From an uncultured Gammaproteobacteria bacterium (lineage in GTDB: Bacteria > Patescibacteriota > Microgenomatia > UBA10105 > UBA927), in assembly GCA_964639945.1 (NCBI GenBank), contig CAZXHY010000001.1, forward strand, positions 9,527 to 73,526: a stretch of DNA of 64,000 nucleotides. Reading direction: 5' to 3'. The position numbers were made by a program, and so were the translations under genes. This document shows positions 4,682 to 53,150 of this stretch, one piece after another. A model generated the notes under the pieces. The model was not told the DNA's origin. It saw only the letters and a list, made by a program, of their open reading frames with translations, and made no database searches. Each line of letters opens with the position of its first letter. The stretch's first letter is position 1.

Positions 4682-5401
4682 TTATTTAAGAAAGCTAAAT
4701 GTGGAAAGTGTAGTTTTTCCGACCTCGAAAGACTTACTTCCGCGGGTTTGATTAAATTGATCAAAAAGGTATATTTTCCCTTTGTGACTGATCACCGAAA
4801 TGGTGCTTTCCCCGCGCTGGGCGGAGTTTACGGTGCCTGAGGCGACTATACCCGCCTCTCCTCCGATGAGAGTAGTAGATAGCGTGAATTTGGGTAAATC
4901 TAAAGACGCTGGCTGCGGTTGTGATGCGTCATAAAAATCTTTCACTAATTGGTTGTATTTTTCGACACCTTCCGTTTTCCACCAATCGGCTGCAGTTTTC
5001 TGTGATGGATATACATAGAGGGTGAATAGTATAGAGTCACTATTTGGGATACCCACGGAATACTCGCGTGTAGTTTTTAGTGCGGTGGTATCTTTTACTG
5101 TGTCAAATACTTCATAGGTGTCTGGTTGGTATTGGAAAGAAAAATCCTCTGTCGCGTAGTACTTCCATCCAGGAATCTGTGCCGTTTGAGCCGTTATCTC
5201 GGCTGGTGTCGGGGTGGGCACTATCGGGCCAGATGAATCGACCATGAGCTTTAGAGAAAGGAGATCGTGGGAGAGTTTGGTGTTTTGATTCAGAAGATAA
5301 GCTACGGTACTTCCAAGTCCAATCGTTATGACAAAAATAATCCAAAAGAGTATTTGAAAGATGTGAGATGAGCTACTGTCACTTTGAAGATCTTCTTCCA
5401 T
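4682..5401 (-). CDS. Hypothetical membrane-anchored/secreted protein
   Basis: 239 aa. N-terminal TM helix (IFQILFWIIFVITIGLGSTVAYLL) followed by a soluble domain. A TACAAT -10 element sits 6 nt upstream of the ATG, suggesting a leaderless transcript. No recognised domain. Confidence 0.5.
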   Translation of the reverse strand: MEEDLQSDSSSSHIFQILFWIIFVITIGLGSTVAYLLNQNTKLSHDLLSLKLMVDSSGPIVPTPTPAEITAQTAQIPGWKYYATEDFSFQYQPDTYEVFDTVKDTTALKTTREYSVGIPNSDSILFTLYVYPSQKTAADWWKTEGVEKYNQLVKDFYDASQPQPASLDLPKFTLSTTLIGGEAGIVASGTVNSAQRGESTISVISHKGKIYLFDQFNQTRGSKSFEVGKTTLSTFSFLK

Positions 5402-5420
5402 GCAACAATTGTAGCATATG

Positions 5421-5444
5421 TTTTTATGAGCGGGATAAGGGAAT
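5421..5444 (-). repeat. 24-nt direct repeat of the tRNA-Gly 3' end (mid T-loop through discriminator plus 9 nt)
   Basis: 'tttttatgagcgggataagggaat' is identical at 5421-5444 and 5622-5645. Degenerate similarity continues a few nt beyond. Confidence 0.8.
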
Positions 5445-5627
5445 AAGAGCTTGCTCGTATTTTTAGAATAACTTCGTTATACATCTAAAAATACTGTGCT
5501 TCCTCCTTATAACTTCCACAATAGTGATCCTTCGTTTTCACTATTGTGGGTTAGCGAACCCAAGAGTGTTGCACCCGCAATTCATTCATATAAAGATAAC
5601 GCGAGCTTCGCTCACATTATTTTTTTA

Positions 5628-5700
5628 TGAGCGGGATAAGGGAATCGAACCCTCTTCTCATCCTTGGGAAGGATGCATACTACCACTGTACTAATCCCGC
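5628..5700 (-). tRNA. tRNA-Gly (anticodon CCC)
   Basis: Reverse complement is GCGGGATTAGTACAGTGGTAGTATGCATCCTTCCCAAGGATGAGAAGAGGGTTCGATTCCCTTATCCCGCTCA. Cloverleaf foldable by hand. Anticodon loop is TTCCCAA and the T-loop is TTCGATT. Confidence 0.85.
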
Positions 5701-5763
5701 AAAAGAACCACATCTCATATTAGCATGAGTGTATGATGTCAGCCAATTTGGGTTTACCAAATA

Positions 5764-6312
5764 CTATGGCAACTGCAACACGTTTCCAGCATGAATAGTG
5801 TTGGGATTCGTCAAATTATTTTTCTTTGCAATCTCCTCCCAACGGAATCCAGTACCGTACACATCTGCTGATATGGTCCACAATGTTTCGCCGTGTTTGA
5901 CAGTGTATTTGCCATCTGTTGGCATTTTCACCTCGACACTGTTGGACAGTGTTTGTCCTTCGGGTCGTTTTGGAACATTTGGAACAGTAAGTTTTTGTCC
6001 AACCTCAATCAGGTTGGCATCAGTCAGAGTATTTGCTGTTGCTATATCTACCCAGTTGTAACCACTGCCAAAATATTTTTGTGCAATGCTCCACAAAGAG
6101 TCTCCTGCCGTAACTGTGTAAGTGGCGGGAAGTGACATATTTGTTTCACTTTTTTGCTGTTCTTTTTTTGTTTCAGATTTAGCGGTGTCTGCTTTCTTTT
6201 CTTGAATATAGTTAAAGATAAGGACACCCGTAACTATAACCACCGCAACGCCTAAAAATAATGACACGAGAGAATCTGGGTTTTTGAGTTGTTTTGTAAC
6301 GTCTTCAATCAT
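5764..6312 (-). CDS. LysM domain-containing protein (two LysM repeats), membrane-anchored
   Basis: Two LysM motifs (YTVTAGDSLWSIAQKY...; YTVKHGETLWTISADVYG...). Start placed at the internal ATG (MIEDV...), which is preceded by GGAGGA 9 nt upstream; the ORF track starts at 6375. Confidence 0.8.
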   Translation of the reverse strand: MIEDVTKQLKNPDSLVSLFLGVAVVIVTGVLIFNYIQEKKADTAKSETKKEQQKSETNMSLPATYTVTAGDSLWSIAQKYFGSGYNWVDIATANTLTDANLIEVGQKLTVPNVPKRPEGQTLSNSVEVKMPTDGKYTVKHGETLWTISADVYGTGFRWEEIAKKNNLTNPNTIHAGNVLQLP

Positions 6313-8989: not shown

Positions 8990-9889
8990 ATGAGTATTCA
9001 ATCTTCGATTCGGTCAAATGTAACGAAAACGTATTTTCTCATGACTGGCTTTATTGCTTTCGTCATTTTATTTTCATATGTGTTGGGTCAAGGGCTGGGG
9101 TATGGGAATGGGTTCATGTGGTTTGCTGTCCTTATAAGTATAGGATCTAGCCTTATAAGTTATTATTGGGGCGATTCGCTAGTTTTGGCTATAAGTGGGG
9201 CCAGACCCGCAGATAGAAAGCGAGATTTTGACTTTTTTACTGTAGCAGAAAATCTATCTATAGCCGCAGGAATTCCCAAACCTAGGCTGTATGTGATAGA
9301 AGATACCGCAATGAATGCATTCGCCACAGGTCGAGATCCTGAGCATGCGGTGGTGTGTGCTACCACAGGAATTCTCGATCGACTTGACCGTAGAGAGCTA
9401 GAGGGAGTTATCGCACACGAGCTTTCCCATATCAAAAATTTTGATATACGACTTATGGCAGTGGTCGCGGTGCTAGTAGGCTCCGTGGCATATATGGCGG
9501 ACATATTCCTTCGAACGCTATGGTGGGGCGGGAGAGATCGAGATCGGAATAACGATAATAGCCTAGGGCCAATTCTGCTTGTGGTAGGTATTGTGCTTGC
9601 GATCCTTTCTCCAATTCTTGCTAGTATCATTCAGCTTGCTGTGTCTCGTAATCGAGAATTTTTGGCAGATGTGTCGGGTGCTGAGCTTACTCGATATCCA
9701 GAAGGTCTTGCACGTGCGCTCGAGAAGCTAGATAAAGATAAAGAAGTCCTCGAAGCCGCCACAAACGCAACGGCGCATCTGTATATAACCAATCCATTTA
9801 AAGATAAAAATTTTGGCGCGTGGTTTGCGGGACTGTTTAATACGCACCCACCGATTGAAGAACGTGTTAAAAGATTGCGTGCCATGTAA
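8990..9889 (+). CDS. htpX: M48 family zinc metalloprotease HtpX
   Basis: HEXXH motif 'HELSHIKNFD' with flanking TM helices. Classic LemA-HtpX gene pair. Confidence 0.85.
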   Translation: MSIQSSIRSNVTKTYFLMTGFIAFVILFSYVLGQGLGYGNGFMWFAVLISIGSSLISYYWGDSLVLAISGARPADRKRDFDFFTVAENLSIAAGIPKPRLYVIEDTAMNAFATGRDPEHAVVCATTGILDRLDRRELEGVIAHELSHIKNFDIRLMAVVAVLVGSVAYMADIFLRTLWWGGRDRDRNNDNSLGPILLVVGIVLAILSPILASIIQLAVSRNREFLADVSGAELTRYPEGLARALEKLDKDKEVLEAATNATAHLYITNPFKDKNFGAWFAGLFNTHPPIEERVKRLRAM

Positions 9890-33446: not shown

Positions 33447-33956
33447 ATGAACTTCGAAGTTGCGAAATCTCGATATCCTATTGTGTCATCGCACTTCGGT
33501 GCATATATAAATCGTGCTATGCTTCCGATTTTAGATATAAATAAACTTGATGCATTGTGTGTTGTAGGGACTGATCGCAAAAGTTTGAAAACTACGACTA
33601 CAGGTGTCATGAGTTTGATATTACGGTATAAACAAAAAGAAGGCGCTGTCTCAAGTTTTGATAATGTAAAGGATGATTTAGTTTTGCTACAGCTTCAAGG
33701 TGCACGCTCTAGTGTTTCTTTCCGTGTTTCTCGAGGGTTTTATTGGACTGATTTTATGGCTGATGAAGCCATTGCCATCGCGTCGCATCGAGATAGCGGA
33801 ATTCGTCGCTTGGCTATGCCAAAAATCGAAAGCATTGAGGGAATCGACCATGGTCAGTCCGAACAATTGATAAATAGATATAGAGATTTTGCTACACGAG
33901 CACAGTTACGTTGGTCACGTACAGATGACGCATATGTTCGTGATGTCCGCAGATAG
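33447..33956 (+). CDS. Hypothetical protein (169 aa)
   Basis: No recognised motif. Convergent with Cys-rich paralog A. Confidence 0.45.
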   Translation: MNFEVAKSRYPIVSSHFGAYINRAMLPILDINKLDALCVVGTDRKSLKTTTTGVMSLILRYKQKEGAVSSFDNVKDDLVLLQLQGARSSVSFRVSRGFYWTDFMADEAIAIASHRDSGIRRLAMPKIESIEGIDHGQSEQLINRYRDFATRAQLRWSRTDDAYVRDVRR

Positions 33957-33989: not shown

Positions 33990-34385
33990 TTATCTTCGTA
34001 GCCTCTGACCAGTTGGATAAAAAGTCCCATGTTCTTGATCCCGTGAATATACTTTTCCTGTTTTGGTAATGCCACGTAACTGCAAGATATGTGTTGGTTT
34101 ATCTTTTGATCCAAATATAGCTAACTGAAGCGACACAGAAGGAGCCCCCCAAGGCTTCAGTCTTGCACGTACGTAGATAAACGTGTTTTTTTGAAGTGCC
34201 GTCTCCGCTGCTTCTTCACCATCTCGTTCGCACATAAAATGGCGACAAAAGTAATCAGACGGATACGTAGATGAGTGAGGGATTGGTTTTATGGCACCGT
34301 GCTCATTTACTATTTCAGGTTGTAGTGCTTCTGGACAGAGCTTGCGTATGCGGCACTTGCCGCATAGTTTTGATTCTTTATTCAT
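33990..34385 (-). CDS. Cys/His-rich small protein, paralog A of an unrecognised family
   Basis: 131 aa. Homologous to 52703..53092 by self-comparison: shared C-x2/3-C-R-I-R-x2-C...L-x-PE-x2-N...FCRHxxC...G-x2-YS-x3-G-x-F-x-TGQ. Confidence 0.6.
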   Translation of the reverse strand: MNKESKLCGKCRIRKLCPEALQPEIVNEHGAIKPIPHSSTYPSDYFCRHFMCERDGEEAAETALQKNTFIYVRARLKPWGAPSVSLQLAIFGSKDKPTHILQLRGITKTGKVYSRDQEHGTFYPTGQRLRR

Positions 34386-34411: not shown

Positions 34412-36076
34412 TTATTGAGGTTTCTGAGTTGTGAGTATTTTATACGCACTTGTGCCATCGTGTCTATTTATCGCGTCGAGGCCTATGAGTCCATCTCTTC
34501 CGCCACACGTAGCATTGTCTATGACTAGCAATTTTTTATTTAATGCCTCTTGAGGAATCATGGATGATGCGCAGTTGTGGTCCACAAATGTGACATTATC
34601 GACTGTTTTTATAGAAAATCCTGCCTCAAATTGCTCGGTGAGTTTAGTGTCAAAATTGTCTGCATAAAAAAGATAGTAGAGTGGTATGCGATCAAATTTG
34701 GTTAGATACACGTGGTCGTATTCGGTGCGATGCATAATTACATATTTAACCACTTCTGGATCCCCATCGTTTCGCAATGTGGACTGGAATGAAGTGGCAA
34801 TTTCTGCGTATTGATGCCAGAAATAAATCGTTTCTACAGCCATAAGAGCAAGCAAAGCATACACAAATAATTTTTTATATCGGTTCGTATCCCAAAGCAC
34901 ATGAAACCCACCGCTCGCTAGGAGAATGATCGGCAAGATCATAAATATAGATCTGTGTGCATGCGGAACAAAATCCGTGGTGATAGCAGAGGAAAGTGGA
35001 GAGACGGCGAGTATAAAAAGCGTGTATATGATAAATCGGGAAAGTAGCCGCGTTTGAGTGAGTAGTAAAACTGCAGCGATAAAAGGAATGACTGCCAAAA
35101 AGAATAGCCCTTGATCGGGGACATTATAGTATCGGAATTGTCCACCAGATTCAAAGAATAAGTATTTTGGAGAAAAATAACTCAGGTATTGGCTTACAAA
35201 TTCTCTACTATAGAGCACATATTTGTTATGAAATACACGAGCCTTTGTCACTTGATTGGCTCCTAACATGTTGCTGAGCGACTCGCTTCTACTTTTTATC
35301 GTTTGACGCATGATGGGATCACCAAGTAGGGATGTCTGTTTAAATCTCGCTTGCCCCCACGTGGTACTACTTATGTATGCAGTGAGCACAAAAGAGCCGA
35401 CTATACCGTAGATCAGTGCTTTTTTTACCAGTGGCTTTACAGCGGTAAAGATAAATGGCAAGGGAAGCAAAGTGAGAGGGGTAAGCACACGAAGTCCGGG
35501 GTAGAGAAAATAGGTCAAGAAAAATAATCCAAAACTTTTGTATATGTGTTTCGTATCCCCGTTTTGTATTCCTTGAAGTATCCAGAGAATGGCGTATGCA
35601 TAGACAGTGAGACCCACGACGCCTTCTGCGGTGGTTCGAGATAGCACGATATGCCATGGGGTAATGGCACACAGGAGTGCGGCAAAAAGCGCAGTAGCGC
35701 GTTTTTGAAAAAATAGGAAAGTGAGCTGGTAGACGGGAAACACAAGGAGCGCGCCTATGAGTGCTAAGGGGAATCTCCCTGCAAACTCTGAGGTGCCCAA
35801 AATAAGCGCTCCCAGACCCGAAAGGTATAGCGGGAGAACTGGTGGATAGTCTCCAAATTTATCGAAGTATACGAGTGGTACCCAATGATTGAATATGTCT
35901 TTGCCATGCATGAGGATAAATTTGCCTACATATGTATTTGTCATTTCCTCTACATAAAACGACGCAGGAACAATGCCTAGTTTATAGACGCGGAAAAATA
36001 GCGCTACCACAAAAATAAGAAGTAGTAGTATGTTGCGTGGTTGGACTACAGAATTTATGCGTGATGCTTTTGGCAT
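34412..36076 (-). CDS. GT-C family glycosyltransferase, GT39/ArnT/PMT-like
   Basis: 555 aa polytopic protein. N-terminal region (LLIFVVALFFRVYKLGIVPASFYVEE...FDKFGDYPPVLP) resembles PMT/ArnT family enzymes. Start trimmed to ATG 36076 (MPKASRI...) to avoid overlapping the divergent YraN gene. Confidence 0.65.
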   Translation of the reverse strand: MPKASRINSVVQPRNILLLLIFVVALFFRVYKLGIVPASFYVEEMTNTYVGKFILMHGKDIFNHWVPLVYFDKFGDYPPVLPLYLSGLGALILGTSEFAGRFPLALIGALLVFPVYQLTFLFFQKRATALFAALLCAITPWHIVLSRTTAEGVVGLTVYAYAILWILQGIQNGDTKHIYKSFGLFFLTYFLYPGLRVLTPLTLLPLPFIFTAVKPLVKKALIYGIVGSFVLTAYISSTTWGQARFKQTSLLGDPIMRQTIKSRSESLSNMLGANQVTKARVFHNKYVLYSREFVSQYLSYFSPKYLFFESGGQFRYYNVPDQGLFFLAVIPFIAAVLLLTQTRLLSRFIIYTLFILAVSPLSSAITTDFVPHAHRSIFMILPIILLASGGFHVLWDTNRYKKLFVYALLALMAVETIYFWHQYAEIATSFQSTLRNDGDPEVVKYVIMHRTEYDHVYLTKFDRIPLYYLFYADNFDTKLTEQFEAGFSIKTVDNVTFVDHNCASSMIPQEALNKKLLVIDNATCGGRDGLIGLDAINRHDGTSAYKILTTQKPQ

Positions 36077-36144
36077 ATATGCTACATAATGTACTATAAA
36101 AGTGTATGAAGAGCGAGATAGGAGATGCGTCTTCAGCGCATAAG

Positions 36145-36498
36145 ATGCACATAGGAAAAATAGGCGAAGATGTGGCAGAGAAGTATCTTCGAAAAAAAGG
36201 TTGGAAAATTCTTCAGAGAAATTATAAAGCACGATACGGAGAAATAGATATAGTGGCACAGGATGACGAAACACTTGTGTTTGTCGAGGTGAAGACCCGA
36301 ATGGGTACTTCGTTTGGTACTCCAGAGGAGTCAGTTACTACGAGAAAATTACGAGAGGTCGTAGAGACAGCTCAATACTACAAAACGCTTCATCCTATGC
36401 TACCTGAGGCTATGCGGGTAGATGTGATCGGGATAGTGTTGGATGTGTCACATAATTCAGTAATTTCATTGAATCATGTAATAAGTGTAACCTCTTGA
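36145..36498 (+). CDS. yraN: YraN family (UPF0102) endonuclease-like protein
   Basis: 'GEDVAEKYLRKKGWKILQRNYKARYGEIDIVAQDDETLVFVEVKTR' matches the YraN signature. Confidence 0.75.
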   Translation: MHIGKIGEDVAEKYLRKKGWKILQRNYKARYGEIDIVAQDDETLVFVEVKTRMGTSFGTPEESVTTRKLREVVETAQYYKTLHPMLPEAMRVDVIGIVLDVSHNSVISLNHVISVTS

Positions 36499-49758: not shown

Positions 49759-50157
49759 ATGAAAGGTTTTGCCAAAAATATAGAGAAATTGACCGAAGAA
49801 AATATTAATTTCCGAAATGTCTTATATACAGGAAAACATAGTCAGCTAGTGCTCATGAGTTTGTTGCCAAACGAGGAGATTGGATTGGAAACACATCCGG
49901 ACAATGATCAATTTTTCCGTTTCGAAAAAGGAACAGGAATGTGTGTCATAGATGGAAATGAATATCAAGTGAGCGCAGGTGACGCGGTGGTAGTACCAGC
50001 GGGTGCTGCGCATAACATTATCAATACGTCAAAATCTGAAAGTCTAAAAATCTACACCCTCTACAGTCCTCCCCACCACAAAGATGGTATTGAGCGAAAG
50101 ACCAAGATAGAAGCCCAGCGGGATAGTCCAGATTATGATGGGGTAAACACGGAGTGA
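49759..50157 (+). CDS. Cupin domain protein
   Basis: Cupin motifs 'G(X)5HXH'-like 'ETHPDNDQFF' and 'GDAVVVPAGAAHNIINT'. SD AGGAGG. Confidence 0.7.
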   Translation: MKGFAKNIEKLTEENINFRNVLYTGKHSQLVLMSLLPNEEIGLETHPDNDQFFRFEKGTGMCVIDGNEYQVSAGDAVVVPAGAAHNIINTSKSESLKIYTLYSPPHHKDGIERKTKIEAQRDSPDYDGVNTE

Positions 50158-52369: not shown

Positions 52370-52600
52370 ATGGCAGATGGATTCAAAGAGGTGTGTGTAG
52401 ATTGCCGATTTCATCAAGCCGTAAAAAAAGAATTGGTAAGGTTTAAAAATGGACAAATGTATATGGTGACAGGAGTATGTACAAATGAACGAAGTATTTT
52501 AAACAAAATTCAGGTTGCAGGAAATTTAACTCCAAAGTCAAATATCATATATAGAAAGCTTCAATTAGCGGATTTCAAAGAGTGTTTTGTTCAGAAGTGA
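52370..52600 (+). CDS. Small Cys-containing protein (76 aa)
   Basis: 'CVDC...C...C' arrangement suggests a zinc-ribbon-like fold. Confidence 0.35.
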   Translation: MADGFKEVCVDCRFHQAVKKELVRFKNGQMYMVTGVCTNERSILNKIQVAGNLTPKSNIIYRKLQLADFKECFVQK

Positions 52601-52702: not shown

Positions 52703-53092
52703 TTATCCCTCATTTATTGATTGGCCGGTGGCGAAATAAGCGCCATCTTGAAACGAATATATATACCCACGAGTAGACACGATACGCAATTTTTCTTTTT
52801 CTGTAGGTTTTTCAAATGTGCCAAATGCCCAACCTCTGATTGTATGTCCTCTACCATTTCTTTCTATGACCATAAAAGATTCTGCGCTACCAGATTTGGC
52901 TTTTTTGGCCGCATTTTCTCCTCCGCCAGACCAACATGTGTAGTGTCTGCAAAACGTTCCTGCGACATGGAGGTGCTTGTCTGTGATAACACCAGTACCA
53001 CCTGCTATATTTATAGTTTCTGGACGAAGCTCGGGGTGGCAAATATCGCGAATTCTGCATGTATTTTTGCAGGCATGAATATCAGGCTTCAT
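52703..53092 (-). CDS. Cys/His-rich small protein, paralog B of the unrecognised family
   Basis: 129 aa. Alignable along its full length with 33990..34385: CKNTCRIRDICHPELRPETIN / CGKCRIRKLCPEALQPEIVN; FCRHYTC / FCRHFMC; GYIYSFQDGAYFATGQ / GKVYSRDQEHGTFYPTGQ. Confidence 0.6.
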   Translation of the reverse strand: MKPDIHACKNTCRIRDICHPELRPETINIAGGTGVITDKHLHVAGTFCRHYTCWSGGGENAAKKAKSGSAESFMVIERNGRGHTIRGWAFGTFEKPTEKEKLRIVSTRGYIYSFQDGAYFATGQSINEG

Positions 53093-53150
53093 AACACGTG
53101 ATTATATCAAACTATAGGGTATTTATACAGAAATAGAGTATAATCCGCGA

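Follow-up and report, generated by a model that had tools for sequence, protein, structure and literature searches.

The 64,000-nt stretch of DNA analysed here (positions 9,527 to 73,526 of contig CAZXHY010000001.1, hereafter the window) carries two small genes, copy A and copy B, which are paralogs within a protein family that we were not able to connect to any described one. Both genes are under strong purifying selection, the family keeps five cysteines almost without exception, and copy A is confidently predicted to consist of a loop-rich, Cys-bearing N-terminal module followed by a helix and a five-stranded sheet. We tentatively propose that A and B are anciently diverged members of this undescribed family, and that they function in the cytoplasm as small proteins that are stabilised by a metal and bind a phosphate-bearing ligand. 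The two genes and their parts are, all on the reverse strand (-):

33990..34385 (-), copy A gene: 131 amino acids (aa), ATG start, stop codon included; matches the family hidden Markov model (HMM) at E=2e-46
34230..34364 (-), Cys5 module of copy A, residues 8-52: C8-x2-C11-x5-C17...C47-R-H-x2-C52, plus L21-x-P23-E24
34002..34223 (-), predicted C-terminal alpha+beta domain of copy A, residues 55-128: F91, K96, R104, G110, S114, Y123, T125-G126-Q127
34233..34235 (-), internal Met51 codon of copy A: the start used in the public annotation (81-aa product, P0004)
52703..53092 (-), copy B gene: 129 aa, ATG start, stop codon included; matches the family HMM at E=2e-49
52934..53071 (-), Cys5 module of copy B, residues 8-53: C8-x3-C12-x5-C18...C48-R-H-x2-C53
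52718..52927 (-), predicted C-terminal alpha+beta domain of copy B, residues 56-125: FGT-x-EKPT, LRIVS, G-x-IYS, YFATGQ

The Cys5 module of copy A is defined by its conserved columns and their spacing, by the low ratio of nonsynonymous to synonymous substitution (dN/dS 0.041) in codons 1-50 and by a local model confidence (predicted local distance difference test, pLDDT) of 90-95. The domain limits of copy B were set by homology to the AlphaFold model, which is of copy A.

An earlier note on this DNA, made from the sequence alone, had described two paralogous open reading frames (ORFs) of about 130 aa lying 18 kb apart, and the ORF list and a pairwise comparison confirm this description. The genes are separated by 18.3 kb, and their products are 30% identical across ~120 residues (E=6e-16 in a single BLASTP comparison). 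The motifs quoted for the pair (C-x2/3-C-R-I-R-x2-C-x3-L-x-P-E, F-C-R-H-x2-C and G-x2-Y-S...T-G-Q) were all found in both proteins. A and B each contain exactly five Cys, all of them at aligned positions that are conserved in the family, and have isoelectric points (pI) of 9.5 and 9.1, respectively.

In the public source record the product of copy A is only 81 aa long and is 100% identical to residues 51-131, an annotation that loses four of the five conserved Cys. Constraint in this gene is strongest over codons 1-50 (dN/dS for copy A as a whole is 0.088, at dS 1.8, by the Nei-Gojobori method against the ortholog DNA from L001), which copy B and the rest of the family also conserve. The correct reading is therefore that of 131 aa, and the annotation of copy A is corrected here from 81 to 131 aa. 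Orthologs of copy A are 131-132 aa long and 75-80% identical to it. For copy B, an identical protein (P0005) is called on 9 contigs and orthologs are found at 67-70% identity; relative to the ortholog P0006 (70% identity) the proportions of nonsynonymous and synonymous differences (pN and pS) are 0.20 and 0.79, with synonymous sites saturated. The idea that A and B are chance ORFs or decaying pseudogenes, to which the 81-aa call and the lack of an evident Shine-Dalgarno-like sequence in the 20 nt ahead of either ATG might lend some colour, has practically no chance of being right and was rejected on the selection data just given (rounded, dN/dS of 0.09 for A and 0.04 in its unannotated first 50 codons, and a pN of 0.20 against saturated pS for B) and on conservation, since full-length orthologs are called in several assemblies, 38 full-length relatives keep the Cys pattern and the AlphaFold model of copy A reaches a pLDDT of 94. 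The earlier note had itself raised the prospect of pseudogene homologs that had lost this pattern; each of the five Cys is kept in 37 or 38 of the 38.

The ATG of copy B is preceded at a distance of ~9 nt by a perfect TATAAT (within window positions 53093..53120, reverse strand), a site left unscored by the consensus scan. Since no obvious Shine-Dalgarno sequence accompanies it, the copy B mRNA may be translated leaderless or with a very short leader. Promoter and terminator scans returned sites no more numerous than in shuffled sequence.

To define the family, a HMMER profile of seven sequences was searched against 1.84 billion representative proteins, a search that the earlier note had suggested. 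This yielded 48 hits at E<=1e-3, 23 of them at E<=1e-10. Two of these, the 3142-aa P0019 and the 666-aa P0043, are spurious and were discarded: they are VCBS/cadherin-like repeat proteins, in which 'GTNDKPT' repeats sum against the 'FGSxDKPT' motif. About 46 related clusters (50% identity) therefore remain, with lengths of 61-148 aa (the shorter ones partial), apart from two of 245 and 249 aa. A typical member has about 117-148 aa and is mostly basic (family median pI 8.8, minimum 5.4). The two long forms, P0035 (L014 3602..4339) and P0044, carry a C-terminal extension of ~110 aa that ends in a second Cys cluster, C...C-x2-C-x10-C, and for which no resemblance could be detected, either to the N-terminal module or in the libraries searched.

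The organism names attached to members are all Woesebacteria, Gottesmanbacteria or 'Patescibacteria group', the closest named ortholog being from Candidatus Woesebacteria, and as far as these data show the family appears to be confined to Patescibacteria, also known as the candidate phyla radiation (CPR). One locus (L020) bears a 'Gammaproteobacteria' label; we rejected it as a sign of a wider host range, as it is a 2-kb contig, with a 273-aa ORF beside the family member, in a metagenome-assembled genome (MAG), and faulty binning most likely explains why it was placed with a gammaproteobacterium. The family is rare: a pattern scan based on A and B (alignment A1) found only two loci among 185,579 GTDB species-representative genomes, and the same patterns found no locus in JGI metagenomes and no relative in IMG/VR. 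A pattern scan from P0018 recovered only one locus, already in the set, and a third, word-indexed homolog search gave no additional members; in alignments A2 and A3 the sequences diverge too far to support a pattern scan.

The neighbour-joining tree of the family is star-like and places A and B in different clades, implying either that the duplication is old or that one copy was acquired from another lineage. A second case of two members in one place occurs in L016, where an uncalled member of ~135 aa (5569..5976, forward strand) lies directly upstream of P0010 (6001..6405), to which it is 31% identical. The proposal that the family is lineage-expanded thus holds for the two copies in the window and for this tandem pair, but the expansion is modest, at only ~46 clusters.

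Conservation was counted over the 38 full-length members, in copy A numbering. C11, C47, C52 and P23 are invariant (38/38), and C8, C17, G56, A60, K96 and R104 are each kept in 37. F91, G110, L21, S114 and G126 follow in 35-36 members (S114 in 35), then H49 and T125 (32), R48 (30), Q127 (26) and E24 (25); Y123, T125 and Q127 are less strictly conserved than K96, R104, S114 and G126. The five Cys are thus among the most conserved positions of the family, as the earlier note had expected when it spoke of five conserved Cys plus one His, whereas the His (H49) is common and not obligatory. Exactly five Cys are present in 26 of the 35 short members. Spacing is also well kept: C8-x2-C11 in 34 of 37 members, with x3 in the copy B clade (copy B shares it with P0006 and P0009), C11-x5-C17 in 34 of 37 and C47-x4-C52 in all 37. 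The first motif often reads C-x2-C-P-[IV]-x3-C, and the C-x4-C pair sits 18-34 residues downstream of C-x2-C-x5-C across members.

We were not able to find a known relative. Copies A and B were searched as single sequences and as profiles, and neither matched an entry of Pfam, NCBIfam, PHROGs, PADLOC or the PDB sequences, so the description of the family as unrecognised stands for these libraries; with their small neighbours, too, they matched nothing in PADLOC or PHROG that would mark A or B as defence or phage proteins. The 35 aligned members gave only scattered single matches to Pfam at E<=10 and no consistent family, and the family profile had one chance match (E=0.44) among all PDB sequences. 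The sole Pfam family matched twice, by two of the 35 members, is the uncharacterised UPF0179 (PF03684), with a score of 11.5 bits (E=0.28) where the cut-off is 25. Its profile is of similar length (140), and residues 4-22 of P0029 align to profile positions 21-38, the CxxCx5C stretch; there is no similarity beyond this 19-residue motif, and we regard the match as a possible lead only. The earlier note had excluded HNH, ferredoxin and radical-SAM proteins, and indeed the spacings CxxCxxCxxxCP, CxxxCxxC and H-N-H (2[4Fe-4S] ferredoxin, radical SAM and HNH, respectively) are not present in the family alignment, and Pfam gave no match. No confident match to a characterised domain emerged from any of these comparisons.

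The predicted structure of copy A depended strongly on the depth of the alignment. With seven sequences AlphaFold produced a poor model (pLDDT 72.5); with 35 sequences the pLDDT rose to 94.1 and the predicted template modelling score (pTM) was 0.88, all five models having a pLDDT of at least 91. In this model the N-terminal 54 residues are rich in loops; C8-C11 form a helical turn, and residues 24-26 and 32-34 pair as a beta-hairpin. The C-terminal part comprises a helix (55-66) and five strands (70-74, 84-90, 104-106, 111-115 and 122-128), in agreement with the conserved C-terminal beta-region that had been proposed. Modelling of both copies followed by Foldseek had been suggested; it was carried out on copy A, for which the good model had nothing significant in BFVD (best E 0.087) and the first, poor model (pLDDT 72) had no match in the PDB. 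Copies A and B represent a new family and probably a new fold, the comparison with the PDB having used the poor model and that with BFVD the good one.

The conservation of the Cys suggests that the N-terminal module very probably binds a metal. A cytoplasmic metal site is likelier than disulfides, as neither A nor B has a signal peptide or a hydrophobic N-terminus. If a metal is bound, zinc is the better guess, with a [4Fe-4S] cluster being clearly less likely; both had been left open in the earlier suggestion of a Zn- or Fe-S-binding module, with which the conservation of the Cys agrees. The pairs C8/C11 and C47/C52 would fit a Cys4 zinc site. As in Cys4 zinc-ribbon and treble-clef modules, the two pairs are parted by a beta-hairpin and the second is predicted to lie just before a helix, the arrangement seen in treble-clef sites, a comparison made from secondary structure. 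The family differs from Cys4 zinc-ribbon modules in the C-x4-C spacing of its second pair and in its near-invariant fifth Cys, and in the model a helical turn, not the beta-knuckle of a zinc ribbon, holds its first pair. Zinc-ribbon Pfam models had no match among the 35 members at E<=10.

We propose the following working model. The loop-rich N-terminal module would be held together by a metal on the conserved Cys (C-x2-C-x5-C...C-x4-C), most simply by one zinc ion on C8, C11, C47 and C52 with C17 as a fifth, near-invariant thiol, or alternatively by a [4Fe-4S] cluster on C8, C11 and C17 plus C47 or C52. The C-terminal helix and five-stranded antiparallel sheet would carry K96, R104, S114 and G126, together with Y123, T125 and Q127, and the metal module would pack against the sheet so as to position R48, H49 and E24. 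The resulting site (K96, R104, S114, Y123, T125 and Q127 with R48, H49 and E24) would suit a phosphate-bearing ligand, most likely RNA or a nucleotide, and the protein would act alone as a binder or regulator and not as a T1-type nuclease. The basic charge of most members, weak neighbours among RNA-binding folds and the lack of a fixed partner gene all point to a lone binder of nucleic acids or nucleotides; even so, we would put RNA or nucleotide binding at somewhat below an even chance, and, should binding occur, it is a toss-up whether the role is non-catalytic.

Several points weigh against this proposal. The metal, the ligand and the geometry of the Cys cluster are all predicted; comparison of alignment A2 with RNase Sa and barnase by hhalign gave a probability of 0.4% (a profile against single sequences); and some members are acidic, down to the minimum pI given above. 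A structural zinc site would also have no need of the near-invariant fifth Cys, which leaves room for Fe-S or thiol chemistry, and translational coupling to an acetyltransferase gene of the GNAT family in one clade hints at a role that depends on a partner.

The fifth Cys also counts in favour of the strongest competing explanation, namely that the Cys module holds a [4Fe-4S] cluster and that the protein is a small regulator responsive to redox state, oxygen or nitric oxide, or an electron carrier, following a logic like that of WhiB but evolved independently. The cluster of WhiB1 is bound by C9, C37, C40 and C46, and the C-x2-C-x5-C of the family has exactly the spacing of the last three of these ligands (PMC6282962). 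The local hhalign match to WhiB1 coincides with precisely this motif, over 17 columns, and the long forms P0035 and P0044 carry a second cluster, C...C-x2-C-x10-C. Endonuclease III and MutY also use C-x6-C-x2-C-x5-C. The WhiB-like (Wbl) proteins of Actinobacteria resemble the family in being small (about 80-140 aa), often basic and present as paralogs within a genome, with C-x2-C-(P-V/I)-x3-C spacing identical to that of WhiB1 C37/C40/C46. However, the WhiB1 match has an hhalign probability of only 6.3% and is limited to the motif, a regular-expression search found the G[VI]WGG motif in none of the 38 members, and no member has a consistent Pfam match at E<=10, hence none to the WhiB family. 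The remaining Cys lie ~30 residues downstream as C-x4-C in our family, whereas Wbl proteins have a lone Cys ~27 residues upstream; the N-terminal module is predicted as loops and a beta-hairpin within a beta-rich, two-domain protein, and not as the four-helix bundle of Wbl; and the family occurs in Patescibacteria, Wbl proteins in Actinobacteria. We therefore rejected Wbl membership on the missing G[VI]WGG, the other Cys order, the beta-rich prediction and the low hhalign probability, and the resemblance, by analogy, may concern cluster binding but not descent. With C8, C11, C47 and C52 fitting a Cys4 zinc site equally well, and with nothing in the neighbourhoods pointing to redox functions, we consider a [4Fe-4S] regulator or carrier of this kind unlikely.

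An enzymatic role is distinctly unlikely. Such an enzyme might have a barnase/T1-like scaffold and be a diverged RNase or a toxin, or it might be a thiol enzyme using C17 with H18 or H49; an enzyme would account for the many conserved polar residues in so small a protein (E24, R48, H49, K96, R104, S114 and Q127). The predicted C-terminal domain would share with the microbial RNase fold (T1, Sa and barnase, and the non-catalytic AVRA22 and BEC1054 of Blumeria) a helix on a five-stranded antiparallel sheet, and in the copy A model the central strand bears a conserved R104 and the final strand an aromatic Y123, which would match the Arg and the aromatic residue of T1 and barnase, a mapping made from predicted secondary structure. 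However, the general-base Glu and general-acid His of T1, Sa and barnase have no conserved equivalent on the corresponding strands or loop, only the Arg being kept in the C-terminal domain (R104, 37/38), and H49 and E24 are too variable for catalysis (32 and 25 of 38). The N-terminal metal module has no counterpart in these RNases, which are secreted, unlike the predicted cytoplasmic members of our family. Against a toxin, the contexts examined hold no conserved adjacent immunity or antitoxin gene, and PADLOC gave no match. Homology to barnase and RNase Sa was rejected, given the 0.4% hhalign probability (against single sequences) and no Pfam match, and the resemblance is at most one of shared topology.

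A bolder variant, which we consider a long shot, combines these elements: a new fold in which a five-Cys [4Fe-4S] or redox-active Zn-thiolate module is joined to an RNase-like, non-catalytic sheet, giving a redox-switched regulator that acts on RNA or nucleotides, with the paralogs having different targets or forming a heterodimer. If true, ultra-small symbiotic bacteria would have evolved on their own a counterpart in function to the WhiB-type sensors. Should the family prove to link RNA or nucleotide binding to a switch of the Fe-S or Zn-thiolate kind, it would add a new architecture of small regulators; if A and B are only structural zinc proteins, they would still represent a new family and fold. 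By new we mean unplaced by the sequence and structure libraries searched, and not a demonstrated mechanism; orphan families are common in these genomes. Patescibacteria/CPR make up a large share of bacterial diversity, and their genomes are rich in lineage-specific families of unknown function (PMC6744442). The present family is a tractable target among them, with members of ~130 aa, strong selection, a near-fixed five-Cys signature and a confident predicted structure.

Genomic neighbourhoods, whose analysis the earlier note had suggested, vary across the family and bear on a further alternative: that the protein serves an acetyltransferase or a cell-envelope glycan pathway, as accessory subunit or as substrate, and is not a free-standing binder. 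On the strand of copy A and 26 nt upstream of it stands the gene for a PMT_2-type glycosyltransferase of 620 aa; four related contigs show the same order, with a spacing of 24-26 nt for A and its orthologs. In one clade, three members (P0009, P0015 and the upstream copy in L016) each come immediately after a GNAT acetyltransferase gene; these GNATs are orthologous, 40-49% identical to one another and closest to PseH, below the model cut-off. The genes of the GNAT and the family member overlap by 4 nt in L013 (408..1411) and L024 (4489..5396), with a sortase gene next, and in L016 (5013..5976) the GNAT at 5013..5552 is directly upstream of the uncalled member. The members that follow GNATs are diverged, being 29-37% identical to A and B. 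Most contexts, however, contain neither a GNAT nor a glycosyltransferase. In about twelve independent contexts the flanking genes encode, among others, PMT_2, EamA, Mfd, LeuRS, Fic, an Rsm22-like methyltransferase, an MFS transporter and a GTPase, and none of them is a partner kept throughout the family; Mfd, LeuRS or the Rsm22-like methyltransferase may stand upstream, and some members are isolated genes. The synteny of copy A carries little weight because the relatives that share it are close (75-80% identity). A GNAT gene does lie near copy B, but on the opposite strand, and its product is not related to these GNATs (24% identity); neither copy in the window has a partner of the GNAT-small-protein type. 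We therefore hold the accessory role to be very unlikely. A type II toxin-antitoxin pair with a GNAT toxin was also rejected, as the pairing occurs in 3 of ~12 contexts, all in one clade, and the GNATs are closest to PseH (below its cut-off) and not to known toxin GNATs.

In the window itself, the earlier statement that both copies lie among small hypothetical genes holds for copy B and only partly for copy A, which has the PMT_2-type gene 26 nt away and faces rplS. With ATP synthase and CTP synthase genes also nearby, a GC content of 41-48% and four tRNAs as its only Rfam matches, the window resembles a chromosome of Patescibacteria (CPR). There is no RNA element close to A or B. The listed GTG start of the PMT_2 gene (34412..36274, reverse strand) overlaps a YraN/UPF0102 gene (36106..36498, forward strand) by ~170 nt; in relatives the PMT_2 gene is called as 554-574 aa, so that translation probably begins at a site further downstream. 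A 169-aa ORF (33447..33956, forward strand) with no match in Pfam, PHROG or PADLOC separates rplS from copy A; in the related contigs L001-L004 only 1 nt lies between rplS and the ortholog of copy A, which marks this ORF as an insertion specific to the present genome.

Copy B is a lone minus-strand gene amid small plus-strand ORFs that have no Pfam or PADLOC match. Toxin-antitoxin, prophage and defence-island ideas for this locus were unsupported. A 76-aa ORF (52370..52600, forward strand), which contains one C-x2-C pair and two other Cys, is convergent with copy B; it matches no family, and each of the four contigs with copy B has it called as a gene. The only phage-family match among the neighbours of copy B is that of a 132-aa ORF (49759..50157, forward strand) to phrog_13536 (unknown function, E=7e-26), and the same gene is marked as Cupin_2 in L007.
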